Positions 9,626-58,084 of a stretch of 64,000 nucleotides of DNA are shown here, in pieces. Position numbers and translations under genes: made by a program. The stretch's first letter is position 1. Each line of letters begins with the position of its first letter. The DNA lies in the IMG/VR virus record IMGVR_UViG_3300028394_000044, positions 32,001-96,000 of that record; one strand, given 5' to 3'. The DNA is from a virus. A model generated the notes under the pieces. That model was not told the origin of the DNA. It made no database searches and saw only the letters and a program-made list of their open reading frames with translations.

Positions 9626-9985
9626 ATGTCATATGAAGTAAACAATACTCTGAGGGGCACAAGTGTAATTCGTGTAGTTGATCCTGGCACGTATACAATT
9701 ACTTTAGCAAACCTTTCTTCTAATACACAATTAGAGACGGTTAGTGCAGCAAACATTAAACGTATTCAATGGTCATCAAATGGTTACATCAATATCGGTC
9801 GGGGTGCTACACCAACTCCAATGTTGGCATTATCTCAATCTGGTGAAATGTATTTTGATACATTAGGATATTCATTAGCAAACACCAATACGGGTAACGT
9901 TGTTGTTACCGTTGTAACGGGTGGCACTGTTGTTATGGAAGTATCTAAGATTGCAACTTATTCAACCAACTTGGATAATACGTAA
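9626..9985 (+). CDS. Hypothetical virion-associated protein
   Basis: 119-aa beta-rich ORF filling the gap between gp68-like and gp21. Confidence 0.55.
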   Translation: MSYEVNNTLRGTSVIRVVDPGTYTITLANLSSNTQLETVSAANIKRIQWSSNGYINIGRGATPTPMLALSQSGEMYFDTLGYSLANTNTGNVVVTVVTGGTVVMEVSKIATYSTNLDNT

Positions 9986-9986
9986 C

Positions 9987-10640
9987 ATGAAACTAATTAC
10001 AGAAACAGTTGAAGACGTAAGATATTTAACTGAAAAAACGGAAGATGGAAAGAAAAATCTTTTTATTGAAGGTATCTTTCTTGTAGGCGAACAGGCAAAC
10101 AGAAATCGTAGAATGTATAAAATAAATACTCTACGTGAAGAAGTTGGTCGTTATACAACTGAATTCATCAAGACAAATCGTGCTCTTGGTGAACTTGGAC
10201 ATCCTGATACACCATCAATTAATTTAGAACGTGTGTGTATCAAAATTGAATCTTTGAAAGAAGATGGCGGTAATAGATTCATCGGTAAAGCGAGAGTTTT
10301 AGAAACTCCATATGGCAATATTGTTAAAAACTTTATTGAGTCTGGTGTTTCTTTGGGTGTTTCTTCCAGAGGTATGGGTTCATTAGTTCCTGGTCGTGAT
10401 GGTATTAACATTGTAGGCGATGACTTTAGATTAGCTACGGCTGCGGATGTTGTTGCTGATCCATCAGCACCAGGTGCATTTGTGAATGGTATTATGGAAA
10501 ACAAAGAATGGGTATTTGTTGAAGGACGTTTTGTGGAAATGCACATAGATAACGCAAAACGTCAAATACAACAAGCATCTAGAAAAGATATTGAACAAGT
10601 GGCTTATCGCCTCTTTGAAAACTTTATTTCAAAACTTTAA
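9987..10640 (+). CDS. gp21: Prohead protease
   Basis: Likely start MKLITE at 9987; 'ALGELGHP', 'GVSSRGMGS', 'ADVVADPSAPGAFV'. Confidence 0.96.
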   Translation: MKLITETVEDVRYLTEKTEDGKKNLFIEGIFLVGEQANRNRRMYKINTLREEVGRYTTEFIKTNRALGELGHPDTPSINLERVCIKIESLKEDGGNRFIGKARVLETPYGNIVKNFIESGVSLGVSSRGMGSLVPGRDGINIVGDDFRLATAADVVADPSAPGAFVNGIMENKEWVFVEGRFVEMHIDNAKRQIQQASRKDIEQVAYRLFENFISKL

Positions 10641-10643
10641 AAT

Positions 10644-10651
10644 TATAAATA
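10644..10651 (+). promoter_or_regulatory. T4-type late promoter TATAAATA for gp22-gp23
   Basis: Exact consensus; intergenic; followed by an AAGGAG RBS. Confidence 0.85.
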
Positions 10652-10675
10652 GATAAACACAAAAGGAGATTCCTA

Positions 10676-11668
10676 ATGGCTACTAATAAACTTTTTGAGG
10701 CTGCGGCTGAAATTCTTGCTTCCGGCAAGGGTAAGAATGCTATGCCTACACAAAAGCTGGACGGCGAAACCGTAGACGCTGGTGGACCAACACCAGAAAA
10801 TTATAAACAAGATGATGATTCTGCAAAGATCACACCCGCAACAAAGAGCGCAACTCCAGCAACAACAAAAGCATCAGATGCTTCTGCCGAAATGGCTAAG
10901 AAGACTCTTTCTAAAGAAGAAACCGAAGCTGAAGAATTTATGGATCTTTCTGATGATATTGATGCTATGTTTGCGGATGACAATACCATTTCTGAAGAAT
11001 TTAAAACTAAAGTTTCCACAATTTTTGAAGCACGTGTTTTAGATCGTATTTCACAAATTGAAGAAAATATTGAATCACATTATTCTTCTTTGTTAGAAGA
11101 AGCAGTTGAGTCCGTTAAAACAGACTTAACAGAAAAAGTTAATGATTACCTTGCTTACGTTGTTGAGCAATGGATGGCAGATAATGAAATCGCTATTGAA
11201 AAAGGCATTCGTGCTGAATTAACAGAAGATTTTATTTCTGGCCTACGTAATTTATTTGCAGAACATTATATTGATGTTCCTGCCGAAAAAGTTGACCTAG
11301 TCGATGAAATGGCTTCAAAGATTGATGATCTTGAAGTTAAACTCGATGAAGAAGTTGAGCGCAATGTAGAGTACCGTAAGGCTCTTATTGAAGCTCACAA
11401 AGTTGAAGCTACCCGTGAAGTTTGTGAAGGTTTGACCGACACTCAAGTTGAAAAGATTAAATCGCTTGCAGAGAGCGTAGAGTTTTCCACAGAGGAAGAA
11501 TATAAATCTAAACTTGAAACTATTCGTGAAAACTATTTTCCTTCCGGAGTTAAGAAGGCTGATGAAGGCCAACTTAATGAGCAAGTAGAGCAAGTTGGTG
11601 ATGTTAAAATTACTGATGCTTACATGAACTCAATCGTCCAATCAATTTCAAAAACAACAAGAATTTAA
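10676..11668 (+). CDS. gp22: Prohead scaffolding/core protein
   Basis: Acidic coiled coil with 'YL.YVVEQWM..N..AIE.GIR.E..E.F..GL..LF.EHYI'; between gp21 and gp23. Confidence 0.93.
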   Translation: MATNKLFEAAAEILASGKGKNAMPTQKLDGETVDAGGPTPENYKQDDDSAKITPATKSATPATTKASDASAEMAKKTLSKEETEAEEFMDLSDDIDAMFADDNTISEEFKTKVSTIFEARVLDRISQIEENIESHYSSLLEEAVESVKTDLTEKVNDYLAYVVEQWMADNEIAIEKGIRAELTEDFISGLRNLFAEHYIDVPAEKVDLVDEMASKIDDLEVKLDEEVERNVEYRKALIEAHKVEATREVCEGLTDTQVEKIKSLAESVEFSTEEEYKSKLETIRENYFPSGVKKADEGQLNEQVEQVGDVKITDAYMNSIVQSISKTTRI

Positions 11669-11690
11669 TTTAAATCAAGGAGTATCCTAA

Positions 11691-13025
11691 ATGTTTCTTT
11701 CCGAAAATCTACAAAAAAAGTGGGCACCTGTTCTAGAACATGCTGACCTACCAAAAATTACTGATCCATATAAGCGTGCTGTTACAGCCGTTATTTTGGA
11801 AAATCAGATCCAAGCAATGCAAAAAGACGCTGGTTATTTAACAGAAGCTGTACCTACAAACGCTTCTGGTACCGGTGGTTTTGGTGGTGCTGACGCTCAA
11901 AACGGCGGTCCAGTAGCCGGTTTCGATCCAATCCTTATTAGCTTGGTTCGCCGTTCATTGCCTAATTTGATTGCTTATGACGTTTGCGGTGTACAACCAA
12001 TGACTGGTCCTACAGGCATGATCTTTGCAATGCGTTCAATGTATGCAACTGACCGTACTACAGCTACTGGTACAGAAGCATTCTACAACGAAGCTAATAC
12101 TGCTCATTCTGGTGTTTCCAATTCTGTCCAACAAACATTGGCATTGAAAGGTTCTACTTCTGACCGTGCATATGGTGTCTTTGATGCTAACACGGCCGCT
12201 GCTATGGCTACAGCTACTGCTGAAAACTTGACACCACTTGAAATGGGTTTCAGCATTGAGAAAGTTACAGTTACTGCAAAGACACGTGCTTTGAAGGCTG
12301 AATACTCAATGGAACTTGCACAAGATTTAAAAGCAGTTCACGGTCTAGACGCTGAAACAGAATTGTCTAACATTCTGTCTTCTGAAATTCTTGCTGAAAT
12401 TAACCGTGAAGTTCTGCGTACAATCTACACAGTTTCTAAAGTTGGTTGCAAAGTTGGTACAACTACTGTTGGTACATTCGACTTGGACACTGACTCTAAC
12501 GGTCGTTGGATGGTTGAAAAAGTTAAAGGTTTGGCTTTCCAAATCGAACGTGAAGCTAACCAAATTGCTAAATTGACTCGTAGAGGTAAAGGCAATACAT
12601 TGATCTGTTCTTCTGACGTAGCTTCTGCTTTGGCAATGGCTGGTTTGTTGGACTATCAATCTGCATTGCAGAGCCAAGTTAACTTGACAGTTGACGATAC
12701 AGGTAACACATTTGCTGGTACATTGTTCGGTCGTATCAAAGTGTATATTGATCCATATTTCCCAACAGGCGCAACTTCCGAGTTCGCAGTTGTTGGTTTC
12801 AAAGGTTCTAATGCATATGATGCTGGTCTGTTCTATTGCCCATACGTTCCTTTGCAAATGGTTCGCGCAGTTGACACTAACACCTTCCAACCAAAAATTG
12901 GTTTCAAGACACGTTACGGTCTAGTTGCTAATCCATTCGCTGAAGGTACTGCTGCTGGTCTTGGTGCGTTGAATGCTACTGCAAACAACTACTATCGCGC
13001 ATTTAAGATTACAAACATTATGTAA
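11691..13025 (+). CDS. gp23: Major capsid protein
   Basis: 'GVQPMTGPTG.IFAMR', 'ELAQDLKAVHGLDAE.EL', 'FYCPYVPL', 'FQPKIGFKTRYG'; predicted gp21 cleavage at YLTE|AVPTN. Confidence 0.98.
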   Translation: MFLSENLQKKWAPVLEHADLPKITDPYKRAVTAVILENQIQAMQKDAGYLTEAVPTNASGTGGFGGADAQNGGPVAGFDPILISLVRRSLPNLIAYDVCGVQPMTGPTGMIFAMRSMYATDRTTATGTEAFYNEANTAHSGVSNSVQQTLALKGSTSDRAYGVFDANTAAAMATATAENLTPLEMGFSIEKVTVTAKTRALKAEYSMELAQDLKAVHGLDAETELSNILSSEILAEINREVLRTIYTVSKVGCKVGTTTVGTFDLDTDSNGRWMVEKVKGLAFQIEREANQIAKLTRRGKGNTLICSSDVASALAMAGLLDYQSALQSQVNLTVDDTGNTFAGTLFGRIKVYIDPYFPTGATSEFAVVGFKGSNAYDAGLFYCPYVPLQMVRAVDTNTFQPKIGFKTRYGLVANPFAEGTAAGLGALNATANNYYRAFKITNIM

Positions 13026-13086: not shown

Positions 13087-13094
13087 TATAAATA
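13087..13094 (+). promoter_or_regulatory. T4-type late promoter TATAAATA for gp3
   Basis: Exact consensus directly after the gp23 terminator. Confidence 0.85.
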
Positions 13095-31906: not shown

Positions 31907-32395
31907 ATGACTAATCTAGGTCGTATTAATTTTGGACCATTGAGTCCAAGTACCGTTGGCTTTGAACGTTTTTTTGATGCGTTTGACCAACTCACCGCGG
32001 ATAAAATTCCGACAAACACTTTTCCACCACATAACATTGTCAAAATTGATGACTATAATTACCAGATAGAACTGGCAGTTGCAGGCTTCAAGATTAGTGA
32101 TATTGATATTGAGGTTTTAAAGGGTGAATTGACAATTTCGGGTAAAAGAACTGAATTAAGTGATAAGTATACTTATTTGCATCGTGGCATTGGTGCTCGA
32201 TCATTTAAGAAGATTGTAAGACTCTCAGATTCTGTAAAAGTTGATGGAGCGACTTTGGAAGACGGAATTCTGACGGTCAAGCTACATAACATCATTCCAG
32301 AAGAAAATCAGCCAAAACGCATTCCAATCGTTTCCAGCGGTAATACTCAAGTATTCAATTCTGAATCCGGCAATAAAAAACTATTGCAAGAATAA
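31907..32395 (+). CDS. hsp20: Small heat-shock protein (Hsp20/IbpA family)
   Basis: 'VGFERFF', 'FPPHNIV', 'ELAVAGF', 'YLHRGI..RSF', 'A.LEDGIL'; AAGGAG RBS. Confidence 0.95.
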   Translation: MTNLGRINFGPLSPSTVGFERFFDAFDQLTADKIPTNTFPPHNIVKIDDYNYQIELAVAGFKISDIDIEVLKGELTISGKRTELSDKYTYLHRGIGARSFKKIVRLSDSVKVDGATLEDGILTVKLHNIIPEENQPKRIPIVSSGNTQVFNSESGNKKLLQE

Positions 32396-51929: not shown

Positions 51930-54257
51930 ATGGATTTCAAGTCGTTTCTAGACGAACAAGCGCAAAAACATGCGGTCCTTGCTTTTGGACGTATGAACCC
52001 ACCAACAACTGGTCATGCAAAGTTAGTTGATAAGGTCAAAGAAGTTGCTAAAGAAGTGGGTGGAACACATCACGTAGTTCTATCTCACAGCCAAGATGTT
52101 AGTAAGAATCCACTATCAGCCGAACAAAAGCTGAAACATGCACACAGATTCTTTCCAGATACCAATCTGAGCACCTCGGATAAAGAACATCCAACATTCT
52201 TACAACACGCAGCCAAATTACATAAAACTGGTGTCACACACTTACATATGGTTGCAGGTTCCGATCGGGTTGGCGAATATGAAAAGAAACTAGCACAATA
52301 CAATGGCACACACAAAGGTGCTTTGTATAATTTCAAAAAAATCACAGTTCATTCTGCCGGAGAACGTGATCCTGATGCCGAAGGCACAGAAGGTATGTCT
52401 GCATCCAAGATGCGTGAACATGCTAAAAATAACAACCTAAAAGACTTTAAAAAAGGTGTTCCGTCCCATGTTTCACATGAACATGCTAAGGAATTGATGC
52501 AGGATGTTCGTAAAGGGATGAATGTTAAAGAAGATTTTAATTCAATCATCTTTAATATACTGACCGAAGGTGTGCATGATAAGAGTATTTTTAAAGCAGT
52601 TTTTCTATCCGGTGGACCAGGTTCAGGTAAAGATTATATCCTCGACAACACATTAGCTGGTCATGGATTGGTAGAAATCAACTCTGATAAAGCATTAGAG
52701 TTCTTGATGGATAAGAACAATCTTGATAAGAAGATGCCAGAGTCCGAAAAAGATATTCGCAACATCGTTCGTGGTAAAGCGAAAGATATGACAGAACTGA
52801 AACAACACCTTGCATTGTTAGGACGTAATGGTCTTATTATCAATGGTACAGGTGATGATCCAGCTAAGTATACAAAAATTAAAAAGAATCTAGAGTCTAT
52901 TGGCTATGAAACTATGATGGTTTCAGTTAATACAAAAGATGAAGTTTCTTCACAAAGAAATATTGAGCGTGGTCAACGTGGCGGTCGTACAGTACCTGAA
53001 GATATTCGTAAAGAAAAATGGGATGCTGTAAACAATGCCAGACCTGAAATGGCAAAGTTGTTTGGTCACAATTACTATGAGATTGATAACTCTGAAGACT
53101 TACGTTCAGCGAAGCCAGATGTTGTCAAAGCTAAAAAAGACGAAATGTTGAACATTTTCAAAAAAGTTCAAGAATTTGTTAAAACAGCACCTAAGAACAA
53201 TGAAGCTAAACAATGGGTTGCTGGCGAATTGAGTAAGAAAGATACATTACCAATCGATAAGAAAGGTGCAGAGTATTCTGGTCCTGCACCCGATGATGCT
53301 GCTCAAACTGAAGCAACCAGACTTGGTTTACAATATTATGGTTTTGGTCGTTACGGAAAAAATAGTAAAGTTACTCACCACTCTGTACATGGTAAATTGG
53401 TGCAAGATCCAACACATGCAGAACAACAAAAAGTTGCAGCCAAAGCTGCAAAAGTCAAACCAAATTTGGGTAGTGGTTCACCTGCATCCAAAAAAGTTTC
53501 TGAAAGTATCAATGAAGAATTTGAGAAACTTATAAGTGAAGTTGGAACTATTCATAATGGAAATTATGATGGTCCAAAAACTGCAAAAGGTCCTGAAGGA
53601 CATACATATACTGCAACGGCTGGAAAGCCAAGAGTTTATGCAATACGTAATTCGGCAGCTAAAGACGCACACCGTATGAATGGTGAAGTTATTAAGACCG
53701 AAAAAGGTTACATGGTTAAATTAAAGGAGAATAAACATGTTGAAATTTCTAAAGAGCTTTTGGAGCAAAAAACAATCAGTATCAGCACCAGTGGTGACAC
53801 CGGAGCCAGTCAAGGTACCAGAACCGGTGGAAGCAGTAAAGCCACCAGTGGTGACACCTACACCTGCACCAGAACCAGTGGTGGAAACACCATTAGTGAA
53901 GACGCCGGATGTGGATGTGACTCCTGCCAAACAACCGGCAGCCGCTATGACACCAGCCCCAAAGAAAAAAAGAAACTCTACCTCTCGCAAGCCAAAGACA
54001 AACTCGCCAAAAAAGTAAAAGAGTCTATCGACCAAGGTATTGAAACTGGAATGTCCATGGCAGCCGGAGGTGAATCCGGTAGCCGTGACATGGGTGAGAA
54101 ATTGAGTAAAAAAGGTAAGGCTATACCTTTCACTAAAGATTCACTCAAAGAAATGGGTGGAGATGAAACTACCGCATCTATTGGTGACCAAAAAGAAGAT
54201 GAGTTGAAGAAACAAGGTATTAGTTTAATTTCATTTAAAAAGAGAAACTACACATGA
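51930..54257 (+). CDS. Multidomain protein: HxGH-type (NMNAT/cytidyltransferase-like) nucleotidyltransferase, zeta-toxin-like P-loop kinase and C-terminal modules
   Basis: 'FGRMNPPTTGH', 'GSDR', 'SASKMR'; then 'GGPGSGK', 'INSD', 'INGTG', 'R..RG..GGRTVPE'. Confidence 0.8.
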   Translation: MDFKSFLDEQAQKHAVLAFGRMNPPTTGHAKLVDKVKEVAKEVGGTHHVVLSHSQDVSKNPLSAEQKLKHAHRFFPDTNLSTSDKEHPTFLQHAAKLHKTGVTHLHMVAGSDRVGEYEKKLAQYNGTHKGALYNFKKITVHSAGERDPDAEGTEGMSASKMREHAKNNNLKDFKKGVPSHVSHEHAKELMQDVRKGMNVKEDFNSIIFNILTEGVHDKSIFKAVFLSGGPGSGKDYILDNTLAGHGLVEINSDKALEFLMDKNNLDKKMPESEKDIRNIVRGKAKDMTELKQHLALLGRNGLIINGTGDDPAKYTKIKKNLESIGYETMMVSVNTKDEVSSQRNIERGQRGGRTVPEDIRKEKWDAVNNARPEMAKLFGHNYYEIDNSEDLRSAKPDVVKAKKDEMLNIFKKVQEFVKTAPKNNEAKQWVAGELSKKDTLPIDKKGAEYSGPAPDDAAQTEATRLGLQYYGFGRYGKNSKVTHHSVHGKLVQDPTHAEQQKVAAKAAKVKPNLGSGSPASKKVSESINEEFEKLISEVGTIHNGNYDGPKTAKGPEGHTYTATAGKPRVYAIRNSAAKDAHRMNGEVIKTEKGYMVKLKENKHVEISKELLEQKTISISTSGDTGASQGTRTGGSSKATSGDTYTCTRTSGGNTISEDAGCGCDSCQTTGSRYDTSPKEKKKLYLSQAKDKLAKKVKESIDQGIETGMSMAAGGESGSRDMGEKLSKKGKAIPFTKDSLKEMGGDETTASIGDQKEDELKKQGISLISFKKRNYT
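53737..54018 (+). CDS. Nested +1-frame Pro/Lys-rich small protein (overprinted)
   Basis: AAGGAGA RBS at 53724-53730, 6 nt before the ATG; amphipathic MLKFLKSFWSKK, Pro-rich middle, basic tail. Confidence 0.7.
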   Translation: MLKFLKSFWSKKQSVSAPVVTPEPVKVPEPVEAVKPPVVTPTPAPEPVVETPLVKTPDVDVTPAKQPAAAMTPAPKKKRNSTSRKPKTNSPKK

Positions 54258-55819: not shown

Positions 55820-58084
55820 ATGAGAAGTTTCAAGCAGATTGCAAGTCTTGTCCGAGGTGAGGACATTTCGGAAGAGGGTAAAAAGTCTCTCGGAACAGGA
55901 TGGATGCTGAAGGCTGATCCAAAATTGGGAAAAGCCGTCAAAGATAAGATCGACCTTACTAAAAAACGTCAAGCAACTTATGGTGATAAATCGGCTGGCA
56001 AGTCCATCAAAGAAGATATTTCACTTGATGAAGTAATGTTCAAAAAAAGTCCTTATGGTAGAACTGCGGCAAGTCAACAACGAGCTAAAGATTTGCTGAA
56101 CCCTCCAAAAGAATCAACCGAAACTAAAGCGGATGAAAAGAAAGAGGTTAAAGAAGCTGTTAAGCAACCAACAGGTAAATTGAAAGATGCCTGCTGGACT
56201 GGTTACACTGCTGTTGGTACAAAAATGAAGAACGGTAGAGAAGTTCCTAATTGTGTACCAGTCAAAGAAGATTTTGAGCAACTTGACGAAATGCCAGGTG
56301 CTAACATGGATACACGGGCTGTACATTCTCACCTAAAGAAAAAAGGTTGGTCTTTAAGTCGTACTTCTGGTGGGCATGATGTATTCACCCATCCTAATGC
56401 GGCTCATCATATTCCAGTTCCTCGTCACCGCCAGTTAAAAGCACCTCTGATTAAAGGTATTTTAAAATCCTCTCAGATTAGTGAAGAAACTAAAGATGTT
56501 GGTGAATATGACTATGAAGGTCAAATGGCTCGTACACAATTACAAACAACATTGCGTAATTGTGAAGATTTACTTGGAATGATTAACGATAATGATAATA
56601 TGCCTGAGTGGGTACAATCTAAGATAACCTTAGCTCAAGACTATATCACAACTGTTAGAGATTATCTACAATCAAAAGAGGAACTCGGTGAAGAAGTTGA
56701 TCCTGCACATAAAAAGATTCTAGATAAAGCGAAAACCAGTACACCTAAATCACCTAAAGGTGAATATGATCGCAAGGTTGAAAAGTATCTGAAGAAAAAG
56801 CATGGCATGAAAGAAGAAGTTGAGCAGATTGATGAGTTGTCTAAGAAAACTCTTGGCTCGTATGTCAATAAAGCACTGGACAGCGCAAGAGAAATGCCTG
56901 GCTCTGGCACGAATGCTGAAGCCAGCAAAAAGTCAAAACGTTTCGCTTCTGTTTCTGCGGCTGCATATCGCACACAAGGTCTTGCGCCAAGAAAAGGCAC
57001 TGATATGTTTAAAAAGTACAAAGCTGAAAGTGTTGTGGCGGAAGGCTCATTAGAAGAAGATAAATATGATAAAATGCTAAGAGATTTGGTGAAGGCAAGA
57101 CCTGACTTAAATAAAAAATATGCCAAAGATGTTAAAAGGTCAAAAGATATTGAAAGTGGCAAAGAGTTAAACAAACTTGTTAAAAAGAATCCTGGTGTAT
57201 TGAAAACACACAGTGATGCTGTAAAGAGAGATAAGAAACTAGGTATGGCGGAAGGCCTATCAGAAATGGACAAATCACAAACTCCGCCAGGACGAGACGG
57301 TCACGTAAGTCATGGCACATACGGTTCTAGAGACAAGAAAGATCCGGATGCTGGTAAGAAACAAGTCTACGGCAAAATGGAGCGCCCTGAAAAAACAACC
57401 AAAACGGCATCGGATATTCTTAACAAAGCATTTAATAAAGGTGTGGCAGAAGCTGTGACATATGAGCCAAGTCCGGGTGCTCGTCCAAATAACGCTGGAC
57501 ATACGCTTGTTGGTTTCTCATTTCATTCCGATAACACAAAACATGCTAACATTATGAAGCATGGTGAGACTGGTAAGTATTATGCTGCAGGTGGCAGTTC
57601 TTCACATCCCGTTAAAAGTACCACATTTCACGATACACCCGAAGATGCTGTTAAAAGCAAAAAGTCTTATGTTAAAGAAGAAGTTGGTCAAGCAACAAAT
57701 TCAAATGAAAATCCAAACAAGGGTCGTTTCATGTCTGCACCAGCTAAAAAAGTAATGAAGCCATCACCTATGGTAACTTCAGAGCAATCTGCTTCTGATA
57801 TTGGTCAACCACAAAGAGAAATTCCTCTTGATACAGCTAAAACTGACCACTCCACCGCTATGAAGATAGCTAAGTTGGCTGCACGTAGACAAGCAGGAAT
57901 CAAAGAGGACATGGAAGCAGACAACTCACTAGGTAAAAATGATACTCTTGCTAAACAAAGCCTTAGCAGAACTGCTGGCATTACAAAAGACCTTGCACTT
58001 ACTGGCAAGAATAAAGAAAATGTGAAGAATAAGGAAAAGTTCGAGCCTGAACCAGAACTATCTTCACAAATCGTTAAACCTTAA
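55820..58084 (+). CDS. Modular putative internal head polyprotein containing a HicA-like domain
   Basis: About 11-12 segments bounded by acidic xxE linkers; modules 'CWTGY..NCVP', HicA-like, 'PEWVQSKIT', 'ELSKKTLGSY'. Confidence 0.75.
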   Translation: MRSFKQIASLVRGEDISEEGKKSLGTGWMLKADPKLGKAVKDKIDLTKKRQATYGDKSAGKSIKEDISLDEVMFKKSPYGRTAASQQRAKDLLNPPKESTETKADEKKEVKEAVKQPTGKLKDACWTGYTAVGTKMKNGREVPNCVPVKEDFEQLDEMPGANMDTRAVHSHLKKKGWSLSRTSGGHDVFTHPNAAHHIPVPRHRQLKAPLIKGILKSSQISEETKDVGEYDYEGQMARTQLQTTLRNCEDLLGMINDNDNMPEWVQSKITLAQDYITTVRDYLQSKEELGEEVDPAHKKILDKAKTSTPKSPKGEYDRKVEKYLKKKHGMKEEVEQIDELSKKTLGSYVNKALDSAREMPGSGTNAEASKKSKRFASVSAAAYRTQGLAPRKGTDMFKKYKAESVVAEGSLEEDKYDKMLRDLVKARPDLNKKYAKDVKRSKDIESGKELNKLVKKNPGVLKTHSDAVKRDKKLGMAEGLSEMDKSQTPPGRDGHVSHGTYGSRDKKDPDAGKKQVYGKMERPEKTTKTASDILNKAFNKGVAEAVTYEPSPGARPNNAGHTLVGFSFHSDNTKHANIMKHGETGKYYAAGGSSSHPVKSTTFHDTPEDAVKSKKSYVKEEVGQATNSNENPNKGRFMSAPAKKVMKPSPMVTSEQSASDIGQPQREIPLDTAKTDHSTAMKIAKLAARRQAGIKEDMEADNSLGKNDTLAKQSLSRTAGITKDLALTGKNKENVKNKEKFEPEPELSSQIVKP

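Follow-up and report, generated by a model that had tools for sequence, protein, structure and literature searches.

A probable out-of-frame gene embedded in the spacer of a large enzyme fusion of a T4-like phage

The locus and its two reading frames

The stretch of viral DNA analysed here, referred to below as the window, comprises 64,000 nucleotides (nt) of the record IMGVR_UViG_3300028394_000044 (positions 32,001 to 96,000) and contains an open reading frame (ORF) of 775 codons, the outer gene, inside which a second ORF of 93 codons, the nested gene, is open in the +1 frame. A first-pass annotation, made from the letters of the window, had proposed that the nested ORF is a complete gene overprinted on a disposable linker of a polyprotein and that both frames are translated; its statement that the 93-codon ORF lies wholly within the 775-codon ORF in the +1 frame agrees exactly with the coordinates (Table 1). 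The best explanation of the locus, which we regard as highly probable on the comparisons described below, is a genuine nested +1-frame gene that would be initiated internally and would encode a late, membrane-tethered, polycationic protein over a spacer of the outer protein.

The nested start carries a strong initiation signal. The core of its Shine-Dalgarno (SD) sequence is formed by the AAG GAG codons of outer residues K599 and E600, and its 6-nt match puts it level with the SDs of the sheath, scaffold and major capsid genes, as the earlier reading of AAGGAGA-6nt-ATG as equal to structural-gene ribosome-binding sites had held. An SD this strong precedes just 5 of the 51 gene starts in the window. 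When the 931 out-of-frame internal ATGs in 50 host ORFs of the window were surveyed, only the nested ATG combined at least 50 open codons with an SD of at least 5 nt. Neither a T4 late promoter box nor a sigma-70-like promoter was found just 5' of the nested gene, the scan counts being those of shuffled controls.

The predicted product is 20% Pro, with PVVTP and PEPV motifs in its middle, and ends in ...PAPKKKRNSTSRKPKTNSPKK (also written ...KKKRNSTSRKPKTNSPKK); the nested frame contains the tryptic peptide QSVSAPVVTPEPVK. AlphaFold2, run on the nested protein with a 30-sequence alignment, returned a helix at residues 3-11 with the rest not ordered (pLDDT 69, pTM 0.14). Among the nested proteins of the relatives introduced below, Pro content ranges from 9 to 24% and charge is distributed in a constant way, the first 13 residues carrying about +3, the last 20 +6 to +10 and the middle a slight negative charge. 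The architecture first proposed for the product stands as regards its amphipathic helix, PEPV motifs and basic tail; as to repeats, a tandem DNA repeat behind the PEPV motifs was looked for and none was found.

Over the overlap the outer frame is rich in Ser, Thr, Gly and Cys and returns to ordinary sequence at VKESIDQG, just as originally described. G+C reaches 0.53-0.55 at 53775-54000 against about 0.37 around it, and the outer codons of the overlap in the window are ACC for 12 of 14 Thr and GCC for all five Ala. By codon score the outer frame (-0.20) and the nested frame (-0.06) of the window overlap both lie below the window genes (0.22 +/- 0.08); across the relatives both overlap frames are atypical and neither is consistently better. 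A 104-codon antisense ORF in register with the outer frame (53721-54035, minus strand) was considered and rejected: it is open in only 7 of 61 relatives, and it is a composition artefact, as the spacer has no TTA, CTA or TCA codons.

An open frame within a gene may be a mere shadow, untranslated and open as a by-product of a stop-poor +1 frame over a low-complexity linker. Outside the overlap, the +1 frame of the outer family holds 0.05 stops per codon, with 29% of codons in +1 open runs of at least 55 codons, and a further 89-codon +1 ORF lies just 5' of the nested gene, at 53266-53535. Such an origin would not explain why the nested ATG alone among the internal ATGs of the window pairs a strong SD with a long ORF. 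Since the +1 frame is stop-poor, however, an open frame in a single genome is not significant and suggestive only, and the case rests on relatives.

Table 1. Features of the outer gene and of the nested gene (window positions unless residues are given)
Feature	Position	Strand	Remarks
Outer gene	51930-54257	+	775 aa (amino acids)
Outer-gene leader MDFKSFLDE	51930-51956	+	capsid-targeting-like
Cytidylyltransferase-like domain of outer protein	aa 6-204
Zeta-toxin/AAA_33 P-loop kinase-like domain of outer protein	aa 211-434
Long Lys/Glu-rich region of outer protein	between kinase-like domain and spacer
Upstream motif L598-K599-E600 of outer protein	53721-53729	+	[LI]-[KR]-E, predicted prohead-protease-type site
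Spacer of outer protein	aa 601-698		coincides with overlap
Downstream motif V696-K697-E698 of outer protein	54015-54023	+	[VIF]-x-E, spacer end
Conserved C-terminal module of outer protein	after spacer		ESIDQGIETG...
Nested Shine-Dalgarno AAGGAGA	53724-53730	+	spacer ATAAAC (6 nt), then ATG at 53737
Nested gene	53737-54018	+	93 aa and TAA stop (54016-54018), +1 frame of outer gene
N-terminal amphipathic basic helix MLKFLKSFWSKK	53737-53772	+	putative membrane anchor
Pro/Val/Glu/Thr-rich extended middle of nested protein	53773-53949	+	outer frame is S/T/G/C-rich spacer
Lys/Ser/Pro-rich basic tail of nested protein	53950-54015	+	net +9 in last 20 residues
NSTSRKPK in nested tail	53974-53997	+	local version of family motif K-S-P-S-x-K-S

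Conservation and selection in relatives

In a scan of viral contigs, 80 loci were found to encode the outer protein, with identities of 45-89%; the presence counts rest on the 75 that contain both flanking anchors. In 74 of these an intact outer ORF contains, at the same place, a +1 ORF of 55-110 codons, and the exception (L054) is without the outer segment too. The 62 distinct products include 61 candidate nested proteins that fall into about 19 classes, with varying length and with middles that cannot be aligned between classes. One more nested class is added by L038, which has a different C-terminal end, while three loci with a different C-terminal architecture are without such a +1 ORF. 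An assembly frameshift as the cause of the overlap is very unlikely, because 74 independent assemblies show the same two open frames.

If the outer gene stopped before 53737, these would be ordinary tandem genes; no outer-frame stop was found before or inside the nested ORF in any of the 74 relatives. This observation also bears on a layout of three tandem genes, in which the outer frame would be unread over 53737-54018 and the enzyme part and the ESIDQG module would be separate proteins. Hypervariability and very atypical codon usage of the outer spacer are what such a layout would lead one to expect. We nevertheless find it scarcely credible: given the nested protein, the probability of an open outer frame is 3e-4 per sequence in the median and 3.7e-5 in the window, yet the frame is open in 61 of 61 sequences. 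No SD or start for a separate downstream module was noticed either, though none was sought.

The number of nested-frame stops expected in the overlap was calculated conditional on each outer protein and on family codon usage. For the 19 class representatives 34.9 stops were expected and none was observed; for all 61 distinct sequences the figures are 121.6 and zero. Control frames match the predictions of the model well: the +2 (third) frame of the overlap contains 115 stops (157.5 expected), and the 100 codons upstream contain 103 in the +1 frame (92.2 expected) and 234 in the +2 frame (232.7 expected). The avoidance of stop codons in relatives that the first-pass annotation had named as a check is therefore present, at 0 against 34.9 across 19 classes. 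Only the outer and nested frames, among the six frames of the overlap, are open in all 61 sequences, and no part of the 1,447-column outer alignment other than the nested stretch is free of +1 stops in every sequence. The absence of nested stops against this expectation, together with an outer frame that is always open despite the low chance of its being so, indicates that selection maintains both reading frames.

The nested start is preserved independently of the outer residue that carries it. The ATG lies on the outer codons AAT, GAT, CAT and TAT (27, 15, 12 and 7 sequences, respectively) and never on NAC, C-ending synonyms of the ATG-bearing codon being 25-37% of background. The first base of the outer codon that follows is always G, whether the residue encoded is E, V, D, A or G. 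The outer residue (N, D, H or Y) drifts while the nested ATG stays fixed. Within 20 nt of the nested ATG, 60 of 61 orthologues have an SD core, formed by a Glu codon that is GAG in 59 of 59 cases (21% in the background), and the Glu codons upstream of the nested ATG taken together are GAG in 67 cases and GAA in 14 (background GAG, 21%). Across all 19 classes, the 60 nt around the nested start (-30 to +30) are less stably folded than the rest of the outer ORF (mean z +1.26).

A nested-frame stop lies 0-7 codons 5' of this ATG in 53 of 61 sequences and abuts it in 19, so that the room for a +1 shift is tiny or absent. This is an argument against a programmed +1 frameshift near 53730, ending at 54018, which would append a Pro-rich basic tail to a truncated enzyme. 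SD-like sequences can stimulate frameshifting elsewhere (prfB, dnaX), and the few codons before the ATG are open in the nested frame of the window. Nothing in that region was seen to be conserved as a slippery or stop-codon site, though; the ATG itself is the conserved element, and the homologues that are free genes start at the same Met; we consider a frameshift product very improbable.

Near the end of the overlap, constraint is visible at positions that are silent in the outer frame. In the conserved outer motif K-[IL]-T-L-x-x-I-[KR], Ile is encoded by ATC in 24 of 30 cases (background 28%), Thr by ACC in 28 of 30 (background 9%) and Leu by CTC in 26 of 28 (background 5%), and where a residue of the motif is switched to Leu, Ile or Phe its codon remains xTC. 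These choices at outer-silent sites keep the nested K-S-P-S-x-K-S, in which Ser-Pro-Ser is fixed. When 762 well-occupied columns of the outer alignment were scored for deviation from background codon choice, 20 of the 25 most atypical columns fell within outer residues 600-688. The remaining five are in the open stretch just 5' of the outer gene or at its last sense codon; they are read as other overlapping signals (the outer SD site and the start of the next gene) and act as positive controls.

At the other end, conservation in the nested frame peaks in the first 12 residues. For residues 2-13, the BLOSUM62 score between classes, averaged over pairs, is highest in the nested frame (0.60), lower in the outer frame (0.14) and negative in the third (-0.61), and the hydrophobic moment of residues 2-12 follows the same order (0.51, 0.35 and 0.28). 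A shadow ORF is hard to reconcile with the absence of stops in 19 classes under well-calibrated controls, with an ATG that is fixed while the outer residue varies and an SD Glu codon that is GAG in every case, or with frozen outer-silent positions and codon anomalies concentrated in the overlap. Genes that stand alone, with an SD of their own, also encode the same type of protein, as described in the next section, and we regard the shadow reading as improbable.

A family of small phage proteins

When 1.84 billion representative proteins were searched with a profile of the nested proteins, 33 called proteins (56-109 residues) matched over their full length, the lowest E value being 5e-15. A few of these are nested ORFs that had been called on short contigs cutting off the outer gene. 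Most of the 33 start with M-[LIF]-x-F-[IL]-K-x-L-F-G-x-K-K, contain an E-A-P-Y-K-V-E motif and end in a KKPRAPK-type tail. Two of them, P0006 and P0018, lie on phage-like contigs with a G+C of 0.38, each as a gene of its own with unrelated neighbours; P0006 lies directly 3' of TATAAATA and AGGAG, and a further match, P0023, adjoins a homologue of a module of the 413-aa protein of the window. A degenerate DNA pattern for EAPYKVE, run on viral contigs, detected at least 120 loci. An ORF of 64-121 codons is present in 75 of the 80 loci read, and in 70 of these 75 it is not nested. The distinct regions upstream of EAPYKVE ORFs contain an SD core in 55 of 61 cases and ATAAAT in 25 of 61.

The nested and stand-alone proteins are connected in several ways. 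The nested ORFs of L033 (EAPYKVE) and L057 (EVPYKVE), which lie inside intact outer ORFs, have the motif at the family position; they are positional orthologues of the window gene and align with M1, F9, Y21 and K22 invariant. With L033 and L057 left out, hhalign comparison of the nested classes with the stand-alone members returned a probability of 92% and an E value of 7e-7 over 16 columns, corresponding to the N-terminal helix. The nested classes conform to the helix pattern of the EAPYKVE family, M-[LIF]-x-x-[LI]-K-x-[LF]-F, and the window product has its size (55-125 aa), its middle rich in Pro, Ala, Val and Glu and its Lys-rich tail. For the class B nested proteins the hhalign comparison with the stand-alone family was not significant, and these match the other nested classes over the tail only. 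Taken together, the nested protein appears to be a diverged, embedded member of a widespread and unnamed family of small phage proteins.

At least six of the stand-alone members have, in place of the amphipathic N-terminus, a hydrophobic helix (19-residue Kyte-Doolittle mean 2.1-2.6) with basic residues after it, and these members keep the EAPYKVE motif and the basic tail; the corresponding hydropathy of the window product is 0.36. The membrane association put forward for the nested product in the first-pass annotation is thus favoured, at the level of sequence, by a conserved amphipathic N-terminus whose place is taken by a true transmembrane helix in some stand-alone relatives.

The family is diverse in context and in domain content. 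Its members of 64-121 aa (L166-L245; examples are L217:10460-10726:+, L191:2230-2520:+ and L167:8344-8592:+) occur on contigs that include some of 260-350 kb. Some carry a Cys/His insert, CGCGRSxxGxCxGxHxLT..EW, between EAPYKVE and the basic tail (L195:7456-7773:+, L227, L237 and L213), and this CGCGRS...C...H insert may be a small zinc-binding module; in L216 an extra C-terminal domain matches small PHROGs annotated as nucleic-acid-binding (E 2e-7). In one clade the small gene (L167:8344-8592:+) lies directly 3' of the gene for a 407-aa protein (L167:7029-8249:+; also in L182, L228, L238 and L239) that has a GH19/endolysin-like C-terminal domain (phrog_181, 7.5e-40; Glyco_hydro_19, 7.5e-14), a neighbour that hints at a lysis-cassette context. 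In another clade the small gene sits beside a gene for a UvdE-like endonuclease on the opposite strand.

The 93-aa protein had no match among 5.8 billion proteins in a word-indexed search, and a protein language-model atlas gave just weak matches, below 0.9, to unnamed viral clusters. The family profile found no match in the genome to which the window belongs, though that search did not pick up the nested gene itself either and so carries no weight.

Several results count against a nested gene of this family, or limit what can be claimed for it. Given the outer protein and ordinary codon usage, the nested frame would be open by chance with a probability of 0.17 in the window and of 0.08 in the median over the relatives. 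Within classes, substitutions in the overlap are distributed over outer codon positions 1, 2 and 3 at about 0.34/0.23/0.42, a pattern that a fast-evolving outer frame could produce on its own and that is therefore not used as support for dual coding. In the largest class, pairwise identity is 69% in the nested frame, 76% in the outer frame and 66% in the non-coding third frame; the nested middle within this class appears to be under little sequence-level constraint, as a shadow ORF would be, and no purifying selection is claimed for it. Conserved outer motifs coincide with both ends of the nested gene, and the conservation there is in part shared. The window product is without E-A-P-Y-K-V-E, which stand-alone members have some 17-24 residues from the start, and has ...SVSAPVVTPE... 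there instead; its probable link to the family consists of the 16-column match, the shared architecture and the orthologous position of L033 and L057. No Pfam or PHROGs family was found for the nested or stand-alone proteins, apart from the extra domain of L216. Finally, tblastn with the nested protein, the outer C-terminal half, P0006 and a 31-aa N-terminal piece as queries found no family member among 50,697 cultured-phage records, a result to which the low-complexity filter may contribute.

What is under selection, then, is the nested start, the openness of the frame, both ends and the composition. The proposal of a real nested gene draws its strength from the conserved ATG and SD, the zero stops where 34.9 were expected, the frozen outer-synonymous sites and the existence of stand-alone homologues.

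The outer spacer, proposed function and significance

The viral record that contains the window is 162,299 bp long and has terminal repeats, and the genes of the window all lie on one strand. They encode a large terminase subunit, a tail sheath and a T4-type portal, a head maturation protease (gp21-like), scaffold (gp22-like) and capsid protein (gp23-like), and a gp46-like nuclease subunit, gp43-like polymerase and gp41-like helicase; the gp21/gp22/gp23-type head module corresponds to phrog_207, phrog_237 and phrog_138 at 9921-13025, with the gp21-like protease at 9921-10640. Because the window carries T4-type head, tail and replication genes, the phage is assigned, from its gene content, as an uncultured T4-like myovirus. 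Boxes of the sequence TATAAATA occur at 10644-10651, just 5' of the scaffold gene, and at 13087-13094, just past the capsid gene; their positions fit T4-type late promoters, while the total in the window is not above chance. The outer gene is followed on its 3' side by a DUF6321 gene and by genes for two long modular proteins, one with a HicA-like module. A second local rise in G+C (0.50) was noted at 56850-57000, within a 766-aa modular ORF, and it coincides with a 203-codon antisense ORF (56662-57273, minus strand) and a 77-codon +1 ORF that has a TTG start and no SD.

The outer protein has no transmembrane segment, its highest 19-residue Kyte-Doolittle mean being 0.75. Nearly all orthologues of its gene begin MKF[RK]DF[LI]xE, and the leader resembles the capsid-targeting sequence (CTS) of T4, which suggests that the enzyme fusion is head cargo. 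In T4, the first 10 residues of the internal proteins direct them to the prohead (PMC9026906), and the T4-type prohead protease cleaves after Glu (PMC5694885). An [LIVMF]xE motif precedes the spacer in 59 of 61 distinct orthologues, and in 49 of those 59 it lies 3 codons 5' of the nested ATG. On the downstream side, a strict pattern detects [VIF]-x-E-[SA]-I-D in 48 of the 61, with the nested stop no more than 19 nt from its Glu codon in those 48; in the window the nested stop overlaps the outer V696-K697-E698 codons themselves.

Between these motifs the outer spacer is hypervariable in sequence and length among relatives. In L054, ...VKLK runs directly into ...TKKTINEID, and the spacer, the Lys-Glu/SD motif and the nested ORF are all absent. 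This locus (L054:5736-5915) is a natural deletion control, in which the downstream INE-ID motif is retained without a spacer. The earlier description of the segment as a disposable linker agrees with its hypervariability, with its loss together with the nested ORF in L054 and with its probable bounds at [LI]-[KR]-E and [VIF]-x-E motifs. These features, the CTS-like leaders and the presence of a T4-type protease in the phage fit a segment that would only have to stay open and join two predicted processing sites. At the spacer end the outer KLYLSQAK (53974-54000; KITLxxIKE in relatives) resembles the CTS-type leaders of neighbouring genes and may be what is left of the beginning of a once-separate downstream gene.

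Given these features, we propose the following mechanism. Ribosomes would initiate independently at the strong SD and ATG on the same, presumably late, mRNA and make a nested product of about 10 kDa, while the outer protein would be cut by the T4-type prohead protease at the hydrophobic-x-Glu motifs flanking the spacer. The nested product would consist of three parts: an amphipathic basic helix of about 12 residues, a variable, Pro-rich and mildly acidic middle, and a polycationic tail rich in Lys, Ser and Pro. The helix would fix the protein to the inner membrane on its cytoplasmic side, the rigid middle would serve as a spacer, and the tail would bind a polyanion, most likely DNA. Dual coding would be tolerated as the outer segment is merely a spacer that needs an open frame.

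We slightly favour a membrane anchor as the role of the helix, for which the exchange of amphipathic and transmembrane helices at the same position is the best evidence here; with such an anchor, the positive-inside rule would place the tail in the cytoplasm. That the tail binds a polyanion, most likely DNA, is possible rather than probable.

A different destination for the same protein would be the head, with the helix acting as a CTS-like binder of the scaffold core and the Lys-rich tail touching packaged DNA. A protease, scaffold and capsid module of T4 type is present in the phage, and the outer gene has a leader like the T4 CTS. Moreover, T4 internal proteins are small and basic, with lysines that contact DNA (PMC3012670), and their targeting requires only the first 10 residues and not a cleavable Glu (PMC9026906). 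The nested leader, however, is basic and, unlike the leaders of the outer-gene family, has no conserved [LI]xE end: leaders of T4-type internal proteins are about 10 residues long and end in hydrophobic-x-Glu, and MLKFLKSFWSKK-like leaders are without a conserved Glu. The true transmembrane helix of stand-alone relatives likewise fits a membrane anchor and not a scaffold-binding peptide. A predicted complex of nested residues 1-40 with the gp22-like scaffold was not supported, a result that is neutral either way. We consider a head-internal protein unlikely. T4 IPI-III are comparable in that they too are small Lys-rich proteins of a T4-like phage with a functional N-terminus of about 10 residues, and the host gene of the nested ORF resembles CTS-led cargo (PMC3012670, PMC9026906). 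They differ from the nested protein in that its leader is cationic and without an [LI]xE site, in that no sequence similarity is found, and in that the transmembrane relatives favour the membrane.

Among known embedded genes, a close parallel in layout is Rz/Rz1 of phage lambda, where the products of both genes are made. As in that pair, a small Pro-rich protein would be encoded wholly inside a larger late gene of a double-stranded DNA (dsDNA) phage, in the +1 frame and with its own SD and start. In contrast to Rz/Rz1, the nested product has no lipoprotein signal and the outer gene encodes an enzyme fusion without a transmembrane segment. A spanin pair was accordingly considered and rejected: no lipobox is present in the first 40 residues of the 61 products, Cys occurs in only 5 of them and not in that of the window, and a fusion of cytidylyltransferase and P-loop kinase without a transmembrane segment is not an i-spanin. 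With neither a lipobox nor an i-spanin, the nested gene is not a spanin gene.

Membrane-DNA tethers, such as p16.7 of phi29 and Noc of Bacillus subtilis, and the membrane-targeting helices of MinD and MinE provide an analogy for the proposed function. The nested protein may resemble p16.7 and Noc in joining an N-terminal anchor to a predicted nucleic-acid-binding C-terminal part, and its helix motif xLKxLKSFFxKK resembles targeting helices of the MinD/MinE/Noc type, a resemblance that we treat as a lead only. Unlike p16.7 and Noc, it has no folded DNA-binding domain and instead has a polycationic tail of Ser, Pro and Lys; its expression is probably late.

Overprinted genes are familiar from small viruses, among them phiX174 E in D and K in A/C and the accessory proteins of RNA viruses (reviews: PMC8227390, PMC6195259). 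The present overlap is like these in that it would yield two proteins per stretch, one of them disordered, basic and compositionally odd, and in a codon skew in both frames. It differs in lying in a 162-kb genome without obvious size pressure and over the spacer of a polyprotein.

The word overprinted, used for the nested gene in the first-pass annotation, implies that the nested frame is the newcomer. The reverse, in which the outer spacer frame is the younger, may also be true, given the stand-alone relatives and, in the window, the codon usage. Birth in place fits a nested frame that is easily opened, with SD and ATG one or two changes away, followed by escape to stand-alone copies. Capture also fits, in which an existing small gene was read through when two cargo genes fused. 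In favour of capture are the wide spread of the stand-alone family and, in the window, a codon usage that is more ordinary in the nested frame; the low chance of the outer frame being open counts against it. The free-standing homologues of the nested protein mean that de novo birth in place is not required. A broader scheme, which we offer tentatively and with some doubt, is that a protease-excised spacer is free coding space, that the small family exists both as late genes and, within a single T4-like lineage, as a frame-shifted passenger, and that the outer frame may be the newcomer, a case of reverse overprinting.

The locus has the attributes of an embedded gene pair, with an ORF inside a longer ORF on the same strand and in another frame, a start under selection and both frames open. 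Judged by these attributes, it is probably a new example of a gene embedded out of frame in a large dsDNA phage, and its location over a polyprotein spacer is unusual. Gene callers forbid nested genes, and protein databases include this one only where the outer gene is cut short by a contig end. The diverged pairs, the natural deletion and the free-standing homologues constitute a natural data set for methods that detect overlapping genes. The work also delimits an unnamed family of small proteins on at least 120 viral contigs, including those of jumbo phages. The combination of anchor, rigid spacer and polycationic tail suggests that the family may have a membrane-proximal role late in infection. 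A large T4-like phage keeps about 280 bases of dual coding in at least 74 sampled relatives without obvious size pressure, and the spacers of processed polyproteins, being disposable, may let such overlaps arise or persist.

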